From NCBI GenBank assembly GCA_031260885.1, contig JAISKP010000140.1, forward strand, positions 1 to 63,426: 63,426 nt of DNA, given 5' to 3'. Below are positions 45,262 through 53,150 of the stretch, one piece after another. The stretch comes from Eubacteriales Family XIII. Incertae Sedis bacterium (GTDB lineage: Bacteria; Bacillota; Clostridia; Peptostreptococcales; Anaerovoracaceae). Under the pieces are notes generated by a model. It saw only the letters and a list, made by a program, of their open reading frames with translations, was not told where the DNA came from and did not search any database. Both the position numbers and the translations under genes were made by a program. Position 1 is the first letter of the stretch, and the number at the start of each line of letters is the position of its first letter.

Positions 45262-45951
45262 ATGAACACTATCAGAATTTTAGAAATTAAAAAGAGCGTA
45301 TATGAGAACAACGACCTTGAGGCGGACAAACTCCGCGCAGACCTGAAGCAGCGGAAGACGTTTCTCATCAATCTCATGTCGTCTCCGGGAAGCGGAAAGA
45401 CGTCGTCCGTCTTGCGCATCGCCGAAAAACTGAAAGATGCATATAAAATCGGCGTTATGGAAGCGGACATCGATTCTGCGGTCGACGCGCAGACCGTCGC
45501 CGATGCCGGCATCCCTGTGATTCAGATCCATACGGGCGGTATGTGCCACCTTGACGCCGAGATGACGCGTCAGGGCGCGGACAGTCCCGAGATGCAGGGA
45601 CTCGACTTCGTGATTTTAGAAAATGTCGGCAACCTCGTCTGTCCCGCTGAATTCGATACAGGTGCCTCAAAGAACATGATGATCCTGAGCGTGCCCGAGG
45701 GCGACGACAAGCCGCTGAAATACCCGCTCATGTTTTCGAAGGTCGATCTGCTGCTCATCAACAAGATTGACACCATCAGCCTTTTTGACTTTGATTTTGA
45801 CGCTGTGGAAGCGCGCGTCCGAAAACGCAATCCCGGTATCAAAATTATGAAGGTTTCCGCTAAGACCGGCGAGGGCTTTGACGAAGTCGCAGCGTGGTTC
45901 AGGACGGAGATCGATGCGTGGAATACGACGGTCTGCGCCTCGCCGTCATGA
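45262..45951 (+). CDS. hypB: Hydrogenase nickel-incorporation GTPase HypB
   Basis: This is a G3E GTPase with SSPGSGKTS, ENVGNLVCPAEFD, SVPEGDDKPLKYP and LINKID. It has no N-terminal CxxCGC or His-rich tract. The last 53 nt overlap the convergent sortase gene. Confidence 0.85.
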   Translation: MNTIRILEIKKSVYENNDLEADKLRADLKQRKTFLINLMSSPGSGKTSSVLRIAEKLKDAYKIGVMEADIDSAVDAQTVADAGIPVIQIHTGGMCHLDAEMTRQGADSPEMQGLDFVILENVGNLVCPAEFDTGASKNMMILSVPEGDDKPLKYPLMFSKVDLLLINKIDTISLFDFDFDAVEARVRKRNPGIKIMKVSAKTGEGFDEVAAWFRTEIDAWNTTVCASPS

Positions 45952-46750
45952 TGATGATGGATCCCATCACGACGAACGCGATCGACGCGCCGAGGATCAA
46001 TTGAATCTCGGAGGTTGAAAGTCCGGTACGTGCGGTCACCTGCTGTTCCCGCTCCGGCACATATGGAATCCGCGTGCCGCGGACGAGCAAGCGATGGCTG
46101 TTGATGCCGAGCGGCGTACAGGTAGCGAGCGTCACGTAGTCCTCGTCCGGCACCGGTCTCAGCATATCCGTATCTTCCGGTGCCACGGTTCTTATGTCAT
46201 CGACCCGGTATGCGGATATCTGCCCCAGGACATCCAGATAGAATTCGTCGCCGATCTCAAGAACGTCCAGACGCGTGAAAAGTTCCTGGCTGGGGAGCCC
46301 CCGGTGACCTGCCAAAACACAGTGCGTGCTTCTGCCGCCGACAGGGAATGCCGTCGTCGGCATATGACCGATGCCATGTTCGAGAACCTGATCCGAAACG
46401 CCGTGATAGACGGGGATCTTCAGATCGATTTTGGGAATCTTCAGCACAGCCATCACACCCGAACCGTTCGGATCGAGCAGCGCATCATAGTCGCTCGGAA
46501 GTGCCGAACCGGAACCGAGGACGAACGGATCCTGCACGGAGAGACCGCTGAGACTCTGGTTATACGCGTCTGCGCGCGCGCGTTCCATGCTGACGCGTGT
46601 CTGATCCAGCGCATTTGCCGTCTCTTGATAGTTTTCGATCACTTTCTGGCTACCCAGCCCCGCGTACCAATTTGAAAACCACGGGTAGGATAGCAGCGCA
46701 GCGCCGGTCAGCACGAGCACGAGCACAATCAGCTTACGAATCATGCGCAT
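45899..46750 (-). CDS. srtC: Class C (pilus-assembly) sortase, copy 2
   Basis: An N-terminal TM (SYPWFSNWY), the lid motif DPF (VQDPFVLG), the catalytic His (LAGHRG) and TLATCTP are present, followed by LLVRG and a C-terminal TM. Confidence 0.9.
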   Translation of the reverse strand: MRMIRKLIVLVLVLTGAALLSYPWFSNWYAGLGSQKVIENYQETANALDQTRVSMERARADAYNQSLSGLSVQDPFVLGSGSALPSDYDALLDPNGSGVMAVLKIPKIDLKIPVYHGVSDQVLEHGIGHMPTTAFPVGGRSTHCVLAGHRGLPSQELFTRLDVLEIGDEFYLDVLGQISAYRVDDIRTVAPEDTDMLRPVPDEDYVTLATCTPLGINSHRLLVRGTRIPYVPEREQQVTARTGLSTSEIQLILGASIAFVVMGSIIIMTARRRPSYSTHRSPS

Positions 46751-47591
46751 CCTCCTTTCGACGACGTCTGCGAACGATGAGGATCAGGAAGATCACGCCG
46801 CCCATGACTGCGGCCGTGATCCCGCCGGCGATCAGTGACTGCCGCTGCCAGACGGACAGATCCGTATGTGTTGTAAGCGCTGCATCTTCCGGATCCGGAT
46901 TTGCGCTGCGAATACCGCGGACGAGCAGTCTGTGGCTGTTGATGCCGAGCGGCGTACAGGTGACAAGCGTCACGTAGTCCTTGCCGGGTACGGGTATCAG
47001 CGCATCCGTCTGATCGGGCAGTACCACGGAAACGTCGTCCACCGTATAGGTGAGCGTCCTGCCGAGGACATTGAACTGAAAGAGGTCGCCGACCTGCATC
47101 ACATCGAGTTTCGTGAAAAGTTCATAACCGGGCAGTCCGCGATGTCCCGCGAGTACGCTGTGCGTACCTTCGCCACCGACGGGAAGCGCTGTCGTGGGGA
47201 TGTGACCGATGCCGCGTTCAAGCACCTCGTCCGTCACGCCGTGATAGACCGGAAGCCGTGCGCCGATTTTGGGGATCACGAGATAGCCCATCGCCCCGTT
47301 ATGATCCACATCGAGGATGTCCTTGTAGTCGTCAAACGGAAACGCACCGATTGCCGAAAAGGGATCAACCGGTAAAACCCCATCCAGACGCCTGTTGTAT
47401 CGCGCCGCCTTGTCAAATTCTGTTCCGACCTGCGTTTCAGACATACCCTCGACAGTTCGATCGTAGCTTTCAATGAGCTTCGCATTCCCGCGCGTGGCAT
47501 ACCAGTTTGAAAACCACGGGTATGCCAACACGCAGACGCCTGCCAGAAGCAAGATGCATACGATTATAATTGGAAAGATCCGGTTTTTCAT
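46734..47591 (-). CDS. srtC: Class C (pilus-assembly) sortase, copy 1
   Basis: It has the same architecture as copy 2: AYPWFSNWY, VDPF lid, LAGHRG, TLVTCTP, LLVRG and a C-terminal TM plus RRRRRK. It overlaps copy 2 by 17 nt. Confidence 0.9.
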   Translation of the reverse strand: MKNRIFPIIIVCILLLAGVCVLAYPWFSNWYATRGNAKLIESYDRTVEGMSETQVGTEFDKAARYNRRLDGVLPVDPFSAIGAFPFDDYKDILDVDHNGAMGYLVIPKIGARLPVYHGVTDEVLERGIGHIPTTALPVGGEGTHSVLAGHRGLPGYELFTKLDVMQVGDLFQFNVLGRTLTYTVDDVSVVLPDQTDALIPVPGKDYVTLVTCTPLGINSHRLLVRGIRSANPDPEDAALTTHTDLSVWQRQSLIAGGITAAVMGGVIFLILIVRRRRRKEDAHDS

Positions 47592-47597
47592 CGTCGC

Positions 47598-49196
47598 TTA
47601 CCGGGCGTCTTTCTGCGCTTTGCCTCTGCGGCTCGTCGAGGCGATCACGATACCGGCGAGACCGATCAGCACGATGCCGCCGACCACGAAGATGAGGGTG
47701 CCCATACCGCCGGTGAGCGGGAACTCGAAGCCCGGGAAGTTTTCGATGATCTGATCGTTCGTAGCTGTAGCAAGTGTCAGCGCATCATTGTAGCTATCGC
47801 CGTCGACGGTCACAACAATCGGTGTGCCAATAAGGCGGTAACCGCTGGGCGCATCGATTTCTACGAGCCAGTAATCTTTTCCTGTGGCAGTAGCGGCTTC
47901 CTCGTCGATCAAACCGTAGGGGAGATGCTTAAACTCGAAATACCCGTCATTTCCACTGGTCGCTACAGCATCAACGCCGCCGACTTTAAAGTAACCGTTT
48001 TGTGCTAAATCGTCGTCAAAAATGGCACTGGATTTTTCGACCAACTTGAATTTTGCGCCGCCGAGAGCGGTACTCTTTTCGCCGTCTACTTTAATCAAGC
48101 TTAGTCCACCCACGAAAACCTTTGGTGAGTCGTCGCCTGTGTCCGAGGTATACTTGTCGCCATCTTTATTTGAATATTCGAGACCGGCTTCATTGACGAT
48201 GCCCGTGGCGATCACTGCCGAATCTAAAACCACGGTTGAAATCTTGACCTGAATCGTGTCGCCGGCATTAAACAAAGCCAAACGAGCCGGTGTAAAGGTG
48301 ATCGTCACATCACCGCCATCCGTATAGGGTCCCGCTGCAGGATCTACGGTATAGTCTGTCCCGAGTGCAAGTGGTGTTCCATCATTGGCACCTTTAACGG
48401 TAGGATTGAGACGCACTTCGAGAGCGCCTGTAAACTGAAGACCTGTGCTGGGAGCGTCTGTCACCGCGTAGGCCGTCTTGCCCGCCACATATGCATATCC
48501 GGATGGTATCTGCGAGGTGATGAACCAATCGACCGTATCGCCTACAGCTACCGGCAGGCTGTCTGTAAGATCGGTTCCGTCAGCGGGAGTCGTATCAGCC
48601 GGATCTGCAGCGCCTTTTTCAATTCCGATATTTGAGTTCTTAGGATAGACCTGTACGTCGAACTCAAGCGTGTCTTCGCCACTTCCGTGGATCGTCGTCG
48701 GAATGCTCACGATAAAGTCACTGACCTGTGTATAGCCGTTCAGCGGCGTCTCATGGATCAGATAAAGTCCCAAGGGGAGACTGTCCCAATATATTGCGCC
48801 GTCGCCGTGACCTGCGCCGGACAGATCTGCTGTCGTACCTGAACCGGTTACGTCTGTGCTATCTTTATAGTAGTCCACGTTGTCGCTTGTAAACAGCACA
48901 TTGCCGGTTTTGTTGGCATCTCCCTGCGGAACAACTTTGATGTAGTCAAATGTGACGCCGTTTAGCGGATTCGCTCCTGTCGGAATCTGCTGTGTCGTAC
49001 CGTTTCCGGGTATGGGCGTCGAAGTTCCCTGATCCAACTTATGAATCGTGATGGATCCCTCCGTCGTTCCGTTCGGGATGGTTGGTCCAGGATCCGCGAA
49101 ACTCGTCATCGGCGCACTCAACGTCAGGATCATAGCGAAGATCACCGCGAAGATCCCTATCCTCTTTGTCAAAGGTTTTCTCGTAATAGCTTTCAT
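47598..49196 (-). CDS. Major (backbone) pilin with an FPLTG sorting signal
   Basis: The signal peptide ends ...MTSFA. The N-terminus has GSITIHK. The pilin motif is VQVYPKN and the E-box is YWLVEIDAPSGY. The sorting signal is FPLTG (47709-47723) plus a TM plus RRGK. Confidence 0.85.
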   Translation of the reverse strand: MKAITRKPLTKRIGIFAVIFAMILTLSAPMTSFADPGPTIPNGTTEGSITIHKLDQGTSTPIPGNGTTQQIPTGANPLNGVTFDYIKVVPQGDANKTGNVLFTSDNVDYYKDSTDVTGSGTTADLSGAGHGDGAIYWDSLPLGLYLIHETPLNGYTQVSDFIVSIPTTIHGSGEDTLEFDVQVYPKNSNIGIEKGAADPADTTPADGTDLTDSLPVAVGDTVDWFITSQIPSGYAYVAGKTAYAVTDAPSTGLQFTGALEVRLNPTVKGANDGTPLALGTDYTVDPAAGPYTDGGDVTITFTPARLALFNAGDTIQVKISTVVLDSAVIATGIVNEAGLEYSNKDGDKYTSDTGDDSPKVFVGGLSLIKVDGEKSTALGGAKFKLVEKSSAIFDDDLAQNGYFKVGGVDAVATSGNDGYFEFKHLPYGLIDEEAATATGKDYWLVEIDAPSGYRLIGTPIVVTVDGDSYNDALTLATATNDQIIENFPGFEFPLTGGMGTLIFVVGGIVLIGLAGIVIASTSRRGKAQKDAR

Positions 49197-49271: not shown

Positions 49272-52200
49272 TCAGGGACCTGCCCTTGCGCTGTGATCCG
49301 GCTTTTCCTCCGGGCGTGGTCTCCTATACAGAAGCAGCAGGATCAAAACAATACCTGCGATCACCATCGCGATGAGGATGCTTAGAATCGGAAAGGAATC
49401 CCCTGTTTTGGGTATGTCCGTGTTTTTGTGCACTTGTTGCTGCGGCACATCATCGGCAGGTTCATCGCCGGGGGGTTCTCCCGCAGGTTCAACATCGGGA
49501 TCCGGCTGAAACGTTTTCGGGTAGACCTCTATATCGTAAAGTACGGATCCGCCTGCTCCGGGCACGACGGTGGGAATCTCCACCAAGAACGGCGACTGCG
49601 CGCCCTGTTCACTGACCAGATAAATCCCTAACGGCAACCCGCCGAACACCGCTTCTCCGTTCACGTCCGTCGCGATCGTCTGCGGCGCATAAGCACCGCT
49701 GCCATCTGCTATATAGGATTTGCCGCCGTAGGTGAATACGACATCATCCTTTGTATCCGGCGTGGGATCGATCAAGACCTTCTCTACCGTAAAATCAACG
49801 CCGGGCATCGGGTTCGCCTCTACGGGCAGCTTGGAGACGTCCTGCGCAGTCCCCGTGCCGGGACGCAGACCGGACTCCGAGGTGTCATGCACTGCATGCT
49901 TGTGTATCGTGATGCTCCCTGACGTCGGAACATCAGCGTAGACATCGGGATCTGCTGCAACGCAAGTGAGCACAACGACAAGGGCTGTCATCAGGACGGT
50001 GCGTACAATGCGCTTTATCAGCGCAGGATCGCGGCGGCGTCCCGAGAGGAAGACGAGCGCTGCCAGCCCGAAGATCATCGCGGCGCCGACCGTCAGGATG
50101 GAAAGATCTCGGGGAAGGACGCCTGTAAGCGGAAGTACCGTCGTCTTGTAATTTGGCAACCTGAGGTTCGTGTTGCCTGTATCTGCGATAAAAGCGGGCG
50201 GCATCAGCGGCCCCTCGGCAGTGATCGAGGTGATCGGATGCTCATCATCCGCGTCTACGGAGATGATCCACCAACCGAGCGGGCACTCATAGCCGTCCGG
50301 GGCGCTTGTCTCAAGAAGCAGATACTGGCCGCTTTCAATGTTCCCGAAATCAACGAGGCCTTGTTCGTCACTGGCCACGTCACCGGAGGAGACTGACACC
50401 CAGCATGTTGCCGTGTCCGGGTCAAAGGCATCGTGATCTCCGGGCTGCGTATGAGCCTCGTTGCTGCATACATAGAGCATGAACGCTGCATCCGGCAGCG
50501 GCGATGAATCCGAGGCTTTTACCTTCGTGAACCTAAACGGTACTTTCTTCGCCAACTTGACGATGAGCTCCGCTTCAGGCGTATCTAGGGGGGTACCGTT
50601 GTTTACGATGATACCGCCTGTGTTTTTGATCGCGTCTGCGAGCTCGGCATCGGTCACTGTATCTTTTATCTTTGCAAGGATTTCCATGCGGATCGTCTTA
50701 TCGAGGGTCGCTATGTCGCTCGCATGATTAAATTTGAAACTTACGATGCTGCTGCCGTCCTGGTTGGGCGTGACCGTTATGGTGCCTTTGTTTGTGACAT
50801 CCGTATTACCCGCATAGACTTTCACTGCGTTTGCGGCTGTGTCTGACAGCTCAAGCTTCGCAGGCATCAGATCCTGAATCTCCATGGATGTATATGCGCT
50901 TACGTCCGCGGGCAGCGTCGTGCTGATCTGATAGCGTACGACCTCTGTGCGGTCTGTGATCGTGTAGCTTTTTTCGAAAGCACTCGATGCGGTATTGAAA
51001 ATATTTTTGTCGCAGTCTGAGGGCGGCACGAGTACCGGCGTAGGGATTTTCTTAAACCCGAAGAATTTGGTTACAGAGCCGCTTGCAACGATTCCGTTAT
51101 GATAGTTCCAGCCGCCATGATTTGCTGACGCCGGCACCCATTCATACCACTGCCCGTCTATTACGAACCGTTCCTGAAAACCATTGATCGTATAGGTATG
51201 ACCCTGCTCAAGAACCTGCGCACCGGAGACGATATTTCCACTCTGATCGAGGTAGTCGGATGGTTTTAATATAATTCGGTTGCTCAGATCATTAAGAACT
51301 GTGCCTGCAGTGTTTATTGCCTCCCCGGCATCGTTCACAAGATAGTACTCGAGTCTGATGGCTGTGCTGGGGTGGAGCAATATGGGCGTATCGACAAGTA
51401 TTTCACAATTCTTATCGTTAAAATTCTTATAGGTAAGAGAGGCTGCGCCGCTGTTTGTCGGGAGCACATGGTCTGTCACGCCATCGTTTAGCTTGATGGG
51501 AATCGTAATGGTGGCATACCCATTGCTCGGGACTTCACCCACGTTCCAGTTGACATTATTTCCACTTCGTGTCGCCGTCCCCTGACTGACCTGCGGCGTT
51601 CCGTTTGCATGGAAGTACTGCGCGTTGATCACATCTGCGAGATTGGCGTTTGTTGCGGCGGATATCATCTTGTTTGAGATTTCTTCTAATATTGCGGGAA
51701 GTTCGGCTGCGGCTATGTTCCACGATCCGGCATTCTGAATCCCGTTAAGAATCGCTACCGCTTGTGCGCCTACTCCGATACCAACCGAGTAAATCTTCAC
51801 ACCATTACTTTTGAGCGTGCTAACTGTAGATTCATAGTCGGAGATATTGCCCGATGGTAGATTGGGTTGACCGTCAGAAACGAACAGAATCGTCGTCGGA
51901 CGGGAGCTATCCGCGCCTGTCCTCCCATCAATAATTGATTTTGCCTTTAAAAATGCATCCGTATAGTTCGTTTCGCCGCCGGGAGCTGCATCCATAATAG
52001 CGTTATGCAATGTCTCTGTGGTGCTGCCAAGCTGAGCCGCGACAGTAGCCGTACTTGCAAATGTAACCAATGCAAGACGATTGCCGCTGTTTGCTGCAGC
52101 GATATCAACGAAATGATTGGTGGCACCTTTTTCGGCGCTGAGTAGCGTGTTCAGTGGCGGAAGAACCGGCAAATCCATGTACCAAGTACCGGGGTAGTTT

Positions 52201-53051
52201 GCGTTGGGACCGGGCACTGTTTTCACATCTGGGTGTACATGAGGTGTTCCGTCCATATTTGATGCACTGAGACGCATGCCTCGTTGTGACATAGTAAAAC
52301 TGAACTGTTTCCATTCCGGGGTCGGGGTATCCTTAAGCTGTACACCATCGTATGGGCAAAAGTATTGCGGTATTGTCGCATAATCCTGAACATTCGTAGT
52401 TCCCGGGTTCCAGACGGTACTGTCTGACACATCGAGTACGATGATGATATCCGAAGCGGTGTCCATCGGCTTTCCCCAGAGATTGAACGTGACTTCTGCC
52501 AGACCGTTCTCCTCGTCTGTCCATTCCGCGCTTTTCGCCATACGGACGTAGCCCGGGTTCGGATCCTGCGGGTACTGCAACGCGTCATAGCCGGGGGCAG
52601 ATTTATTGGGATATGACAGCTGTGCGTCATCGGGGATGTTCGCCTGCGCGCCCATCGCCCGGATGAGGCTGCCGCTCACGATGTCTGCAAACAGGCTTCT
52701 TATGGGTTTTTGTACGTCGGATAGATCAGAGTCGTCTTCCGGATCCTCCGCTTCGGATGTTTCATCTTCCGCATCCGCATCCGCGTCCGAGACTTCCTCT
52801 GTTTCATCCGCGCCCGGGTTTGGTGCATCCGGTTCTTCTGTTCCATTCTCGGCATCCGATTCAGAACCATCCTGTTCCGTTTCCTGTTCGGAAATAGCCT
52901 GCTCCGTTGTTTCACCGGCCGACATTTCGGCTTCGTCGCCGAAGATCGCGGTAGGGATGAAGACGACGACCGAAAACAGGATCGTTACGGACAGAATGTG
53001 TGCGATCAGTTTTGCTTTTATATGTTGTTTTTGTGAAATACAGACGCTCAG
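49272..53051 (-). CDS. vWA-domain pilus tip adhesin fused in frame to a basal/minor pilin (single ORF; proposed CTG start)
   Basis: - A signal peptide lies upstream of the first ATG.
- An acidic low-complexity tract follows.
- The vWA domain has the MIDAS motif DVSDS (52419-52433), plus TNYTDAF and FVSDGQPN.
- A CnaB-like region carries the E-box YLLLETSAPDGY.
- The first sorting signal is LPLTG (50121-50135) plus a TM plus GRRRD.
- With no stop codon, a signal-peptide-like segment (IKRIVRTVLMTALVVVLTCVAADPDVYA) comes next.
- A pilin domain follows (GSITIHK, EVYPKTF), then a Pro/Asp-rich tail.
- The second sorting signal is IPKTG (49401-49415) plus a TM plus RRPRP. Confidence 0.75.
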   Translation of the reverse strand: MSVCISQKQHIKAKLIAHILSVTILFSVVVFIPTAIFGDEAEMSAGETTEQAISEQETEQDGSESDAENGTEEPDAPNPGADETEEVSDADADAEDETSEAEDPEDDSDLSDVQKPIRSLFADIVSGSLIRAMGAQANIPDDAQLSYPNKSAPGYDALQYPQDPNPGYVRMAKSAEWTDEENGLAEVTFNLWGKPMDTASDIIIVLDVSDSTVWNPGTTNVQDYATIPQYFCPYDGVQLKDTPTPEWKQFSFTMSQRGMRLSASNMDGTPHVHPDVKTVPGPNANYPGTWYMDLPVLPPLNTLLSAEKGATNHFVDIAAANSGNRLALVTFASTATVAAQLGSTTETLHNAIMDAAPGGETNYTDAFLKAKSIIDGRTGADSSRPTTILFVSDGQPNLPSGNISDYESTVSTLKSNGVKIYSVGIGVGAQAVAILNGIQNAGSWNIAAAELPAILEEISNKMISAATNANLADVINAQYFHANGTPQVSQGTATRSGNNVNWNVGEVPSNGYATITIPIKLNDGVTDHVLPTNSGAASLTYKNFNDKNCEILVDTPILLHPSTAIRLEYYLVNDAGEAINTAGTVLNDLSNRIILKPSDYLDQSGNIVSGAQVLEQGHTYTINGFQERFVIDGQWYEWVPASANHGGWNYHNGIVASGSVTKFFGFKKIPTPVLVPPSDCDKNIFNTASSAFEKSYTITDRTEVVRYQISTTLPADVSAYTSMEIQDLMPAKLELSDTAANAVKVYAGNTDVTNKGTITVTPNQDGSSIVSFKFNHASDIATLDKTIRMEILAKIKDTVTDAELADAIKNTGGIIVNNGTPLDTPEAELIVKLAKKVPFRFTKVKASDSSPLPDAAFMLYVCSNEAHTQPGDHDAFDPDTATCWVSVSSGDVASDEQGLVDFGNIESGQYLLLETSAPDGYECPLGWWIISVDADDEHPITSITAEGPLMPPAFIADTGNTNLRLPNYKTTVLPLTGVLPRDLSILTVGAAMIFGLAALVFLSGRRRDPALIKRIVRTVLMTALVVVLTCVAADPDVYADVPTSGSITIHKHAVHDTSESGLRPGTGTAQDVSKLPVEANPMPGVDFTVEKVLIDPTPDTKDDVVFTYGGKSYIADGSGAYAPQTIATDVNGEAVFGGLPLGIYLVSEQGAQSPFLVEIPTVVPGAGGSVLYDIEVYPKTFQPDPDVEPAGEPPGDEPADDVPQQQVHKNTDIPKTGDSFPILSILIAMVIAGIVLILLLLYRRPRPEEKPDHSARAGP

Positions 53052-53069
53052 TTTATGGCTCCCCCCGGT

Positions 53070-53113
53070 TGTTCTATAAGATACTTAAAGCTGTTCTATA
53101 AGATGCTTAAAGC
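53070..53113. repeat. Tandem 22-bp direct repeat immediately upstream of the pilus-operon SD
   Basis: tgttctataagatActtaaagc / tgttctataagatGcttaaagc match at 21 of 22 positions. The repeat is followed by the 8-bp-stem palindrome aagctgca-acgc-tgcagctt. Confidence 0.85.
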
Positions 53114-53150
53114 TGCAACGCTGCAGCTTCCTAATATATTCATACCCAAG

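Follow-up and report, generated by a model that had tools for sequence, protein, structure and literature searches.

Tip adhesin and base pilin in one reading frame: a putative pilin polyprotein of a Family XIII Incertae Sedis bacterium

The window, i.e., the whole stretch of 63,426 nucleotides analysed from an Eubacteriales Family XIII. Incertae Sedis bacterium, contains a Gram-positive, sortase-assembled pilus operon in which one open reading frame encodes both the tip adhesin and the small base pilin. The locus raises two questions, i.e., whether this fusion is genuine, and how two pilins could be obtained from it.

A single frame with two sortase substrates

The frame from 53051 to 49272 on the minus strand was open throughout, i.e., 1259 codons plus stop (Table 1). 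The sequence-only reading had described an uninterrupted ORF with two sortase substrates. This description held, with LPLTG found at 50135-50121, IPKTG at 49415-49401, and the MIDAS motif DVSDS of the tip module at 52433-52419. The ORF listing began at the first ATG, i.e., 49272..52925 (-), 1217 aa. Upstream of this ATG, the frame stayed open to CTG 53051-53049 and encoded the N-terminal signal peptide SVCISQKQHIKAKLIAHILSVTILFSVVVFIPTAIFG. Because no ATG, GTG, or TTG was found ahead of this signal peptide in the open frame, CTG 53051 was taken as the probable start. This codon is preceded by a strong Shine-Dalgarno sequence, GGGGGGAG (7-nt spacer, -10.4 kcal/mol), and in alignment it falls on the ATG at which the orthologue from locus L001 begins. 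A CTG start combined with a strong Shine-Dalgarno sequence was unique to the tip gene among the 41 long ORFs of the window; therefore, CTG starts are no habit of this genome.

The precursor runs from the signal peptide to a VWA/MIDAS tip adhesin, LPLTG-TM-RRR, a basic loop, and a second signal peptide (VYA|D), followed by a one-domain pilin with a YPK lysine, a Pro/Asp-rich tail, and IPKTG-TM-RRPRP. In this one protein, Pfam search matched VWA, SpaA, GramPos_pilinD1, and, internally, Gram_pos_anchor (18.0 bits, under its 20-bit cut-off). Hydropathy gave exactly four hydrophobic segments, i.e., signal peptide 1, TM1, signal peptide 2, and TM3, in agreement with the earlier proposal of a self-consistent out/TM/loop/TM/out/TM topology. 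Two complete, independently recognisable pilin modules in a single frame, recurring in relatives, are far beyond chance.

The gene order of the operon was tip, base, shaft, sortase C, and sortase C. The shaft pilin matched SpaH/EbpB with 252.9 bits (cut-off 95), and both sortases matched class C (246.7 and 246.0 bits, cut-off 160). Window genes around the locus were long and intact.

Table 1. Features of the fused ORF and the downstream pilus genes (positions in the window)
Feature	Position	Strand	Basis and remarks
Fused tip-adhesin/base-pilin ORF	49272..53051	-	ORF listing, Pfam; first canonical ATG 52925
N-terminal signal peptide of precursor	52938..53051	-	Probable CTG start, GGGGGGAG, hydropathy, alignment with ATG-started signal peptide in L001
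VWA adhesin domain	51735..52460	-	MIDAS DVSDS 52419-52433; Pfam-matched core 51735-52148
Isopeptide-type D2 stalk domain, tip module	50604..51014	-	TIGR04226
SpaA/CnaB-type stalk domain, ahead of first sorting signal	50235..50534	-	Pfam
First cell-wall sorting signal	50040..50135	-	LPLTG 50121-50135 and hydrophobic helix TM1 50040-50120
Predicted cytoplasmic loop RRRDPALIKRIVR, +6/-1	50001..50039	-	13 residues, no stop codon
Codons near junction	CTG 50021, ATA 50018, ATT 50009 (in loop); ATG 49991	-	
Internal signal peptide IKRIVR-TVLMTALVVVLTCVAA-DPDVYA	49935..50018	-	V-Y-A at -3/-1, putative signal peptidase I site
Base-pilin D1 domain	49515..49922	-	GramPos_pilinD1; EVYPK pilin-motif lysine at 49515-49517
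Pro/Asp-rich tail, predicted disordered, presumed wall-spanning	49416..49511	-	
Second cell-wall sorting signal	49275..49415	-	IPKTG 49401-49415, TM3 49326-49400, RRPRP tail
Major (shaft) pilin, SpaH/EbpB family	47598..49196	-	VYPKN, E-box YWLVEIDAPSGY, FPLTG; own ATG with AAGGAG, -9.3 kcal/mol
Class C sortase 1	46734..47591	-	DPF lid motif, TLVTC active site
Class C sortase 2	45899..46750	-	DPF lid motif, TLATC active site

The base-pilin module and the junction

The second module had been proposed as a paralogue of the N-terminal domain of the major pilin, and BLASTP supported this relationship (34% over 204 aa, E = 7e-19). The internal signal-peptide segment likewise shares homology with the shaft pilin's signal peptide, which is cleavable. 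AlphaFold predicted a helix-turn-helix hairpin followed by a beta-sandwich modelled with confidence, then by a disordered tail and a helix, in a model of moderate confidence as a whole (mean pLDDT 60). By Foldseek, the predicted fold of the module matched the N-domains of SpaD/SpaA and the base pilins SpaB and GBS52. At the second sorting signal, an EF2685/EF0750 sortase-dependent tail match gave 37.6 bits, under the 47-bit cut-off. The Y-P-K of the module was invariant in relatives.

The loop RRRDPALIKRIVR is composed of the charged tail of sorting signal 1 and the n-region of signal peptide 2. Tandem TGA-TAA stops lie here in the +1 frame, as noticed before. No ATG, GTG, or TTG was found at the window junction upstream of the second hydrophobic core. 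The best Shine-Dalgarno pairing there belonged to CTG 50021 (-3.5 kcal/mol, a background value reached by 43% of in-frame positions), and ATA 50018 gave 0.0. In comparison, independently started pilin genes had pairings of -8.8 to -12.3 kcal/mol (shaft pilin, -9.3 in four of six loci). The window sortase starts were weaker than pilin starts, i.e., -4.9 and -7.0 kcal/mol. These values agree with the earlier judgement that internal initiation is unlikely. Some near-cognate initiation at CTG 50021 may occur, since CTG stands at the aligned position of the former start and seemingly also begins the gene itself.

At the DNA level, a usable canonical start was absent in 6 of the 10 junctions examined. 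No usable start was found at the junctions of L087, L088, L090, and L092, L086 had ATC only, and L091 had a weak TTG. A plausible internal start was kept in L001 (TTG, -9.3 kcal/mol, and ATG), L004 (ATG, -8.9 kcal/mol), and L085 (ATG). Because of these relatives, the polyprotein route may not be the sole one in the family, and a mixed or dual route may apply to the family as a whole. L001 also carries a +1 TGA at the aligned position (cat ATG Ata), and its ATG was aligned with the CTG/ATA of the window. An ancient frameshift merging an ATGA stop/start overlap is a plausible origin. More generally, two closely spaced genes were likely fused by stop loss or an old frameshift, after which the internal start decayed, i.e., from ATG to CTG/ATA in the window.

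Relatives carrying the fusion

To collect relatives, 1.84 billion cluster representatives were searched exhaustively with HMMER. The same in-frame junction was found in all nine informative close relatives, with 37-58% identity over aligned stretches, and none of the nine encoded a stand-alone base pilin. P0002 had the same architecture, with 52-58% identity across two long BLASTP segments and a loop 16 residues longer. P0004, P0005, P0006, P0007, P0010, and P0012 were also fused. P0016 had been called stand-alone, but its call starts mid-ORF and its contig begins within the charged tail 'RRK' with the frame open from there; thus, it is considered fused as well. P0014 and P0051, whose frames were open back to the contig start, were left out of the stand-alone count.

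The order of the junction was constant, i.e., LPxTG, hydrophobic helix, strongly basic loop, signal-peptide h-region, and AxA-type site. The V-L-P-L-x-G of the first sorting signal was invariant in eight relatives. Loops were of eight lengths (13, 19, 20, 22, 23, 29, 35, and 41 aa), every one in frame, with net charges of +4 to +10. AxA-type sites were kept in relatives, and most junctions had a small -1 and a compatible -3 residue (VYA, CYA, GYA, VHA, AFA, GRA, ALA, and IGA). Adhesin heads varied over the common fused C-terminal cassette, including VWA, Listeria-Bacteroides repeats, and others. A multi-helix membrane tail took the place of LPXTG in P0005, P0006, P0007, P0010, and P0016.

The junction pattern was shared by five more distantly related adhesin-pilin fusions (P0028, P0040, P0063, P0076, and P0106), which originate from MAGs of Actinomycetes and Clostridium and from one ENA assembly. 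All fused examples are of metagenome or MAG origin rather than from cultured isolates, and many came from a single JGI sample series (3300042601, 3300042602, and 3300042611); the lineage sample is therefore narrow.

A proposed single precursor for two pilins and its comparison with known systems

A recent 1-nt indel or an assembly error had been named as a serious alternative to a real fusion. The +1-frame TGA-TAA fits such an artefact, or decay to a pseudogene; the exact protein is absent from any other assembly on record, and distant unfused loci suggest that a single mutation could fuse such neighbours. This explanation was rejected because the in-frame junction recurs in independent assemblies with different loop lengths, i.e., in at least nine close and five distant relatives, and no junction stop was found in any of the nine informative close ones. 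The domains are all intact, conserved residues are retained, and the surrounding genes are long and complete. Error or decay is thus largely refuted and very improbable, and the comparative data indicate that the tip-base fusion is genuine. A less remote, still unlikely explanation is a nested in-frame gene, in which the base pilin is translated alone from CTG 50021, ATA 50018, or by coupling to upstream ribosomes, with the read-through protein as a by-product and the open junction frame as a tolerated accident. The in-frame ATG or TTG of L001, L004, and L085, the strong pairing in the first two, a AAGAGGAAGG motif 8 nt ahead of the ATC in L086, the alignment of the window CTG/ATA with the L001 ATG, and the seemingly CTG-started tip gene speak for it. 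Against these stand the background pairing at the window junction, the uniqueness of the tip gene's CTG start, and the four relatives without any usable start. Moreover, if the upstream frame were irrelevant, the chance of eight loop lengths in frame would be about (1/3)^6 or less by rough estimate, presuming that out-of-frame loop indels are tolerated in separately translated genes.

It is also conceivable, with a lower probability than internal initiation, that one precursor is made and signal peptidase does not cut it. Once sortase had removed the tip module, the base pilin would then sit on a TM1-loop-TM2 hairpin and act as an acceptor tethered twice to the membrane, or the whole protein would be a polytopic surface adhesin. 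The topology is equally consistent with this, and the multi-helix tails of five relatives mean that membrane tethering of the base module does occur in the family. To our knowledge, natural bacterial proteins in which signal peptidase I cleaves an internal signal peptide are also rare. However, the -1 and -3 residues suit cleavage in most junctions, the segment resembles a cleavable signal peptide, and a wall-linked pilus base that kept an N-terminal membrane hairpin would fasten wall and membrane together.

The preferred reading, with a probability of about 0.65, is a pilin polyprotein, i.e., one precursor cut by sortase at LPLTG and by signal peptidase I after VYA. We infer both cleavages from motifs, topology, and comparative data. 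The N-terminal signal peptide would direct the tip module through Sec, and the helix of the first sorting signal would halt transfer (N-out, C-in). The basic loop would remain cytoplasmic, and the internal signal peptide would re-insert (N-in, C-out) and restart export of the base module. The cut after VYA would give a base pilin beginning with DVPTSG at 49934 (predicted neo-N-terminus DVPTSGSITIHK), retained in the membrane through the IPKTG-TM-RRPRP signal that it carries. A class C sortase would cut LPLTG, and the tip module, as an acyl-enzyme, would start the pilus on the YPKN lysine of the shaft pilin. The YPK lysine of the base pilin would later capture the growing polymer, and its IPKTG would serve wall anchoring, probably via a housekeeping sortase encoded outside the window. 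If so, each translation event would likely supply one initiator and one terminator/anchor at the same translocon. Synthesis of the shaft pilin begins separately, at a strong ATG/Shine-Dalgarno start. In the literature searched, no comparable system with two pilins from one precursor was found; this route to two pilus parts is apparently undescribed.

The FbcH polyprotein of Bradyrhizobium japonicum (cytochrome b/c1) yields two envelope proteins from one ORF, and engineered internal cleavage cassettes exist in E. coli leader peptidase. In both, an internal signal-peptide-like helix with AxA after a membrane helix is cut by signal peptidase I. They are unrelated to the window proteins, have a Gram-negative host, and lack a sortase step and a second C-terminal sorting signal. 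Their cleavage was demonstrated experimentally, whereas that of the window precursor is predicted.

The window gene order is that of spaCBA. The operon has the same parts as SpaCBA-SrtC1 of Lacticaseibacillus rhamnosus GG and SpaA/SpaB/SpaC of C. diphtheriae, i.e., a VWA/MIDAS LPxTG tip adhesin, a small base pilin whose lysine acts as nucleophile and which carries a sorting signal of its own, a shaft pilin of SpaH/EbpB type with YPKN and E-box, and class C sortase(s). Pilus assembly generally begins with the tip, is terminated by the base pilin, and ends with anchoring by the housekeeping sortase (PMC9046445). Like SpaB of C. diphtheriae (PDB 8SQX, Foldseek E = 8.6e-5) and GBS52 of S. agalactiae (PDB 3PHS, E = 1.3e-4), the second module is small, with a conserved lysine and a separate sorting signal. 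Its sequence is nearer to that of the N-terminal D1 domain in shaft pilins (SpaD, Spa2, and FimP) and to the shaft pilin of its own locus, and unlike SpaB and GBS52 it has no free-standing precursor.

In known sortase-assembled heterotrimeric pili, each pilin has a gene to itself, complete with start codon, N-terminal signal peptide, and stop codon. In the window, tip and base form one ORF, and the second signal peptide follows directly on the first sorting signal, with no internal canonical start or Shine-Dalgarno sequence. At the junction position of distant unfused loci, a stop, a strong Shine-Dalgarno sequence, and ATG are present, sometimes in the same frame. In the metagenome loci L005, L013, and L015, the tip-type protein ends with LPxTG-TM-KRK, and the ATG of the next pilin follows within 3-15 nt in the same reading frame, with all three signals present. 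These loci represent the ordinary two-gene state, one mutation short of fusion.

Fused reading frame and pilus operon

Two complete mature proteins were encoded in a single ORF, i.e., a tip adhesin module and a second pilin module. The ORF listing counted 1217 aa from the first ATG, but the frame stays open beyond this codon up to position 53051, and the added stretch is a typical signal peptide, KQHIKAKLIAHILSVTILFSVVVFIPTAIFG. No ATG, GTG, or TTG was found ahead of this N-terminal signal peptide. The CTG at 53051 is placed 7 nt downstream of GGGGGGAG, and its anti-Shine-Dalgarno pairing (-10.4 kcal/mol) is as strong as that at the ATG of the shaft pilin (-9.3 kcal/mol). Its alignment partner in the orthologue at locus L001 is the ATG start, so the start coordinate proposed in the sequence-only reading is reasonable, and the fused tip/base gene appears to start at this CTG. 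Initiation at CTG as a general habit of the genome was rejected; among 41 long ORFs in the window, a CTG with strong Shine-Dalgarno ahead of the first canonical start was seen in the tip gene only. A weak CTG start could hold the tip and base output low compared with the shaft pilin, whose start is an ATG plus AAGGAG.

Directly upstream of the Shine-Dalgarno of the pilus operon, a 22-bp direct repeat was observed, in which the unit TGTTCTATAAGATACTTAAAGC (+ strand) occurs in 2.1 copies with a match of 95%. A TGGGTATGAAT element resembling the L001 -10 region and a short palindrome, GCTGCA...TGCAGC, precede it. This repeat may be a regulator-binding site.

In domain search, the one protein carried VWA, VWA_2, SpaA, and GramPos_pilinD1 (Pfam), and the internal LPXTG-anchor match was below the cut-off. 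By Pfam and motif location, the tip module consists of an adhesin domain (VWA, MIDAS DVSDS), a SpaA stalk domain, and its own sorting signal, LPLTG-TM-RRR. The second module has one GramPos_pilinD1 domain, in which Y-P-K is present, followed by a Pro/Asp-rich tail and by IPKTG, which takes the place of the FPLTG of the shaft pilin. By its features, i.e., small size, a lysine nucleophile, and a sorting signal unlike that of the shaft pilin, it corresponds to a base (anchor) pilin, and its role at the pilus base is predicted. The paralogy that had been proposed between this module and the N-terminus of the major pilin was borne out, with 34% identity over a 204-residue alignment that takes in the signal peptide (E = 7e-19). 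The motif coordinates of the sequence-only reading also all agreed with the window sequence.

Coordinates of features of the pilus operon in the window
Feature	Position	Strand	Status
22-bp direct repeat	53070-53115		
CTG 53051 with its Shine-Dalgarno sequence	53049-53066	-	
Fused ORF, counted from first ATG	49272..52925	-	ORF listing
MIDAS DVSDS	52433-52419	-	verified in sequence
LPLTG	50135-50121	-	verified in sequence
Basic loop of junction	50039-50001	-	
Candidate internal initiators	CTG 50021, ATA 50018, ATT 50009, ATG 49991	-	verified in sequence
VYA of internal signal peptide	ends at 49935	-	verified in sequence
IPKTG	49415-49401	-	verified in sequence
Shaft pilin	47598-49196	-	
Class C sortase genes	46734-47591; 45899-46750	-	

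Downstream of the fused ORF, the shaft pilin and then two class C sortases were found. The shaft pilin was assigned to the SpaH/EbpB family (252.9 bits against a cut-off of 95), and its VYPKN motif, E-box YWLVEIDAPSGY, and FPLTG+TM+RRGK were located. The two sortases, which adjoin the pilin genes, scored 246.7 and 246.0 bits against the cut-off of 160 for NCBIfam class_C_sortase and have DPF lids and TLxTC sites. No further sortase genes were found in the window. No RNA families were detected in the window by Rfam, and a scan detected no promoter or terminator at the junction.

Relatives and reality of the fusion

Word-indexed protein searches gave few relatives, and the family came to light when 1.84 billion cluster representatives were searched exhaustively by HMMER with a 427-residue junction-spanning segment as the query. 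Fused relatives from this search were the proteins P0004, P0005, P0006, P0007, P0010, and P0012. One relative, P0002, was obtained in word-indexed searching, with 52-58% identity in two long BLASTP segments. The JGI contig encoding it (49 kb) carries the same operon. P0002 shows, in one frame and in the same order, LPLTG-TM-GRNRR, a loop 16 residues longer than that of the window, a signal peptide, and GSITVHK. The fused relatives came from three JGI samples, NCBI MAGs, and one ENA assembly, and none from a cultured isolate. Their adhesin heads vary (VWA, Listeria-Bacteroides repeats, and others), and the cassette of stalk, sorting signal, signal peptide, and base pilin is constant. Within it, the internal sorting signal always has V-L-P-L-x-G, and the second module always has Y-P-K.

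Five more distant fusions of an adhesin to a full-length pilin showed the same junction pattern, i.e., P0028, P0040, P0063, P0076, and P0106. P0063 has a thioester domain. P0076 is a 4468-aa LRR protein of a Clostridium sp. MAG (locus L092, 4001-17407), adjoined by a separate pilin and two sortases, and P0040 is a 5127-aa giant adhesin of an Actinomycetes MAG, in which the internal sorting-signal/signal-peptide junction is followed by a pilin module.

Tandem TGA-TAA stops are present in the +1 frame at the junction, as the sequence-only reading had stated, and an assembly error or a recent 1-nt indel was raised there as the alternative. However, all nine informative close relatives were fused in frame without a stop at the junction, and no demonstrably separate base pilin was seen. 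Because the same in-frame fusion recurs in these nine and in the five distant relatives, from several assemblies, this alternative was rejected. The fused ORF is almost certainly real and conserved.

Four proteins looked like stand-alone base pilins. The contig of P0016 begins within the charged tail ('RRK...') with the frame open from there, so this protein is fused. In P0014 and P0051, the frame is open to the first base of the contig, and P0043 is an N-terminally truncated fragment. P0014, P0016, and P0051 were thus rejected as stand-alone controls, since contig ends cut all three and the frame is open upstream. Gene callers also misplaced starts. The tip gene was started past its signal peptide (L001 9902-10001; first ATG of the window), and on truncated contigs base modules were called from Met or Val within the internal signal peptide (L088 95; L085 16; L089 27). 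Fused genes therefore look like stand-alone small pilins. In databases, they stand under generic names ('YegL', 'SpaH/EbpB major pilin', 'repeat protein'), often with the start called inside the gene.

A scan of GTDB species-representative genomes with the junction-spanning protein gave two irrelevant distant matches only (Corynebacterium mendelii, Desulfobaculum) and no cultured or closely related genome. By exact-sequence look-up, no other assembly with the same protein was found. A metagenome scan with the alignment gave 80 loci, all distant (24-39% identity) and nearly all ordinary two-gene loci, which served only for comparison with the unfused state. The exception was L024, where a pilin D1 match lies deep within a 1451-codon open frame. 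The junction motif of P0063 was not found in L024, and this locus was not tied to P0063.

In P0005, P0006, P0007, P0010, P0016, and P0043 (loci L086, L004, L090, and L088), the base-pilin module has no LPXTG signal. These modules end with '(I/V)PFG...(T/S)NAWSLLSLIMS', a TM, RRR, an acidic loop, and 'ERRNAFIARTLTIIFGILTPIVFLILDDMRLPxVWINKWTxYV'. The tails have three hydrophobic segments and only a faint DUF2178 match. They could be a new membrane anchor or sorting signal for the pilus base.

Translation through the junction and origin of the fusion

Every canonical and near-cognate codon in ten junctions was surveyed, and the anti-Shine-Dalgarno duplex energies were computed. As references, independently started pilin genes gave -8.8 to -12.3 kcal/mol, with the shaft pilin at -9.3 in four of six loci. 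Weaker starts also occur, i.e., the called shaft-pilin start of L087 (-3.3 kcal/mol) and the two sortases of the window (-4.9 and -7.0 kcal/mol). In the window junction, no ATG, GTG, or TTG was found upstream of the second hydrophobic core. The pairing of CTG 50021 was -3.5 kcal/mol, and 43% of the in-frame positions in the ORF reach this value. ATA 50018 scored 0.0, and ATG 49991, which lies within the hydrophobic core, +0.7 kcal/mol.

A nested gene, i.e., a base pilin translated independently from an internal start, was weighed against these data. It has a start codon at the right place in L001, L004, and L085, where an internal ATG or TTG is kept, and a weak TTG in L091. However, the L087, L088, L090, and L092 junctions, like that of the window, have no usable canonical internal start, and L086 offers only ATC, yet with a good Shine-Dalgarno made of RKRK codons. 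The earlier judgment that internal initiation looks unlikely therefore stands for the window, with no canonical start and a background Shine-Dalgarno, but does not carry over to L001, L004, L085, and, less clearly, L091. The loop between the two hydrophobic helices also speaks against a nested gene. It has eight lengths (13-41 residues) among close relatives, and all preserve the frame. Independent translation would make frame-shifting indels in this loop harmless and common, and none was seen, which argues for a need to translate across the junction. A nested gene is the main rival reading and is considered unlikely. There is no in-frame stop, so neither stop-codon read-through nor an alternative genetic code is needed.

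The CTG ATA at window 50016-50021, in the context 'gcg CTG ATA aag', was aligned with the ATG ATA at L001 12620-12625, in the context 'cat ATG ATA tgt', with TGA in the +1 frame in both. This TGA looks like a relic of an ATGA stop/start overlap. The alignment suggests that the fusion plausibly arose by an old frameshift in the 3' tail of the tip gene, with later decay of the internal ATG to the CTG now seen in the window. In the distant unfused loci L005 (3409-3708), L013, L015, and L022, the ATG of the next pilin follows the tip stop by 3-36 nt in the same frame, and the Shine-Dalgarno is within or just past the charged-tail codons. L005 reads '...KRKGE-TAA-ACT-ATG', and L013 and L015 read 'TAA AAA GGA GGA ATT AAA ATG', both genes being in the same frame in each. 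At such loci, a single stop-codon mutation would give a fusion of the window type.

Proposed processing and comparison with known systems

Hydropathy gave four hydrophobic segments, i.e., signal peptide 1, TM1, signal peptide 2, and TM3, in accordance with the topology put forward earlier. The internal signal peptide (n-region IKRIVR, h-region TVLMTALVVVLTCVAA, c-region DPDVYA/D) follows a membrane helix and is itself predicted to be oriented N-in/C-out. The net charge of the loop is +5 in the window and ranges from +4 to +10 among relatives; as it is strongly basic in every case, it is expected to stay cytoplasmic. In most junctions, position -1 is a small residue and position -3 a compatible one (VYA, CYA, GYA, VHA, AFA, GRA, ALA, IGA). 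In an AlphaFold2 model from an 11-sequence alignment (mean pLDDT 60, D1 domain about 80-87), helices 35-58 and 63-86 are joined by a turn of four residues, and after them come a beta-sandwich, a Pro-rich tail predicted as disordered, and a last helix. Foldseek matched the sandwich to the N-domains of SpaD, Spa2, FimP, and SpaA, and also to two base pilins, SpaB (8SQX) and GBS52.

In the proposed pathway, the tip module would be exported by Sec, TM1 would stop transfer, and the internal signal peptide would re-initiate export. Signal peptidase I would then cut after VYA, leaving DVPTSGSITIHK as the predicted N-terminus of the base pilin. A class C sortase would cut LPLTG and start the pilus, the lysine of the base pilin would capture the polymer, and IPKTG would anchor the base pilin to the wall. 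This order of assembly is that of the accepted sortase-pilus model (PMC9046445). From sequence and model, the fused protein probably works as a polyprotein processed in this way (probability about 0.65).

A stronger reading, held tentatively and at somewhat less than even odds, is that the hairpin of sorting signal and signal peptide was selected and is not a tolerated accident. The gene would then be an obligate polyprotein giving one tip initiator and one base terminator/anchor per translation and translocation event. This would fix a 1:1 ratio, co-place both at the assembly site, and perhaps favor ligation of a tip to its own base, i.e., wall-anchored heterodimers. Such a gene would have evolved several times over, in Clostridia and Actinomycetes and with various adhesin heads. 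If a precursor with an internal signal peptide and two sorting signals does occur naturally, a sorting signal is able to work in mid-protein, and the locus is a rare natural bacterial case of internal signal-peptidase processing. It would also have a built-in answer to tip:base stoichiometry, and a compact cassette would display two proteins from one gene. The finding, drawn from uncultured genomes and inference, would surprise workers on sortase pili.

Sortase-assembled pili are a model for covalent assembly of surface fibers in Gram-positive bacteria. To our knowledge, the question of how the single tip and single base of a fiber are kept in balance with its many shaft subunits is still open in the field, and every described system makes each pilin as a separate precursor. 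In a full-text literature search (two or internal LPXTG signals, fused pilins, polyproteins, and internal signal peptides with sortase), neither a naturally fused pilin nor a protein in which a signal peptide comes after an internal sorting signal was found described. For internal signal-peptide cleavage, there are precedents in the FbcH cytochrome b/c1 polyprotein of B. japonicum and in engineered leader-peptidase constructs. By sequence, the fused gene resembles an FbcH-like envelope polyprotein in having a single ORF for two proteins and, after a membrane helix, a predicted internal signal peptide whose -3/-1 site is recognizable. With SpaA-type pilus loci, the locus shares class C sortases, a shaft pilin, a tip pilin, and a predicted base pilin. 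In those loci, each pilin is a separate precursor with its own start, N-terminal signal peptide, and stop, whereas the tip and base pilins of the window share one ORF. The locus is an ordinary sortase-assembled pilus operon except for the missing gene boundary; its parts and enzymes are classical, but the organization of the precursor is not.
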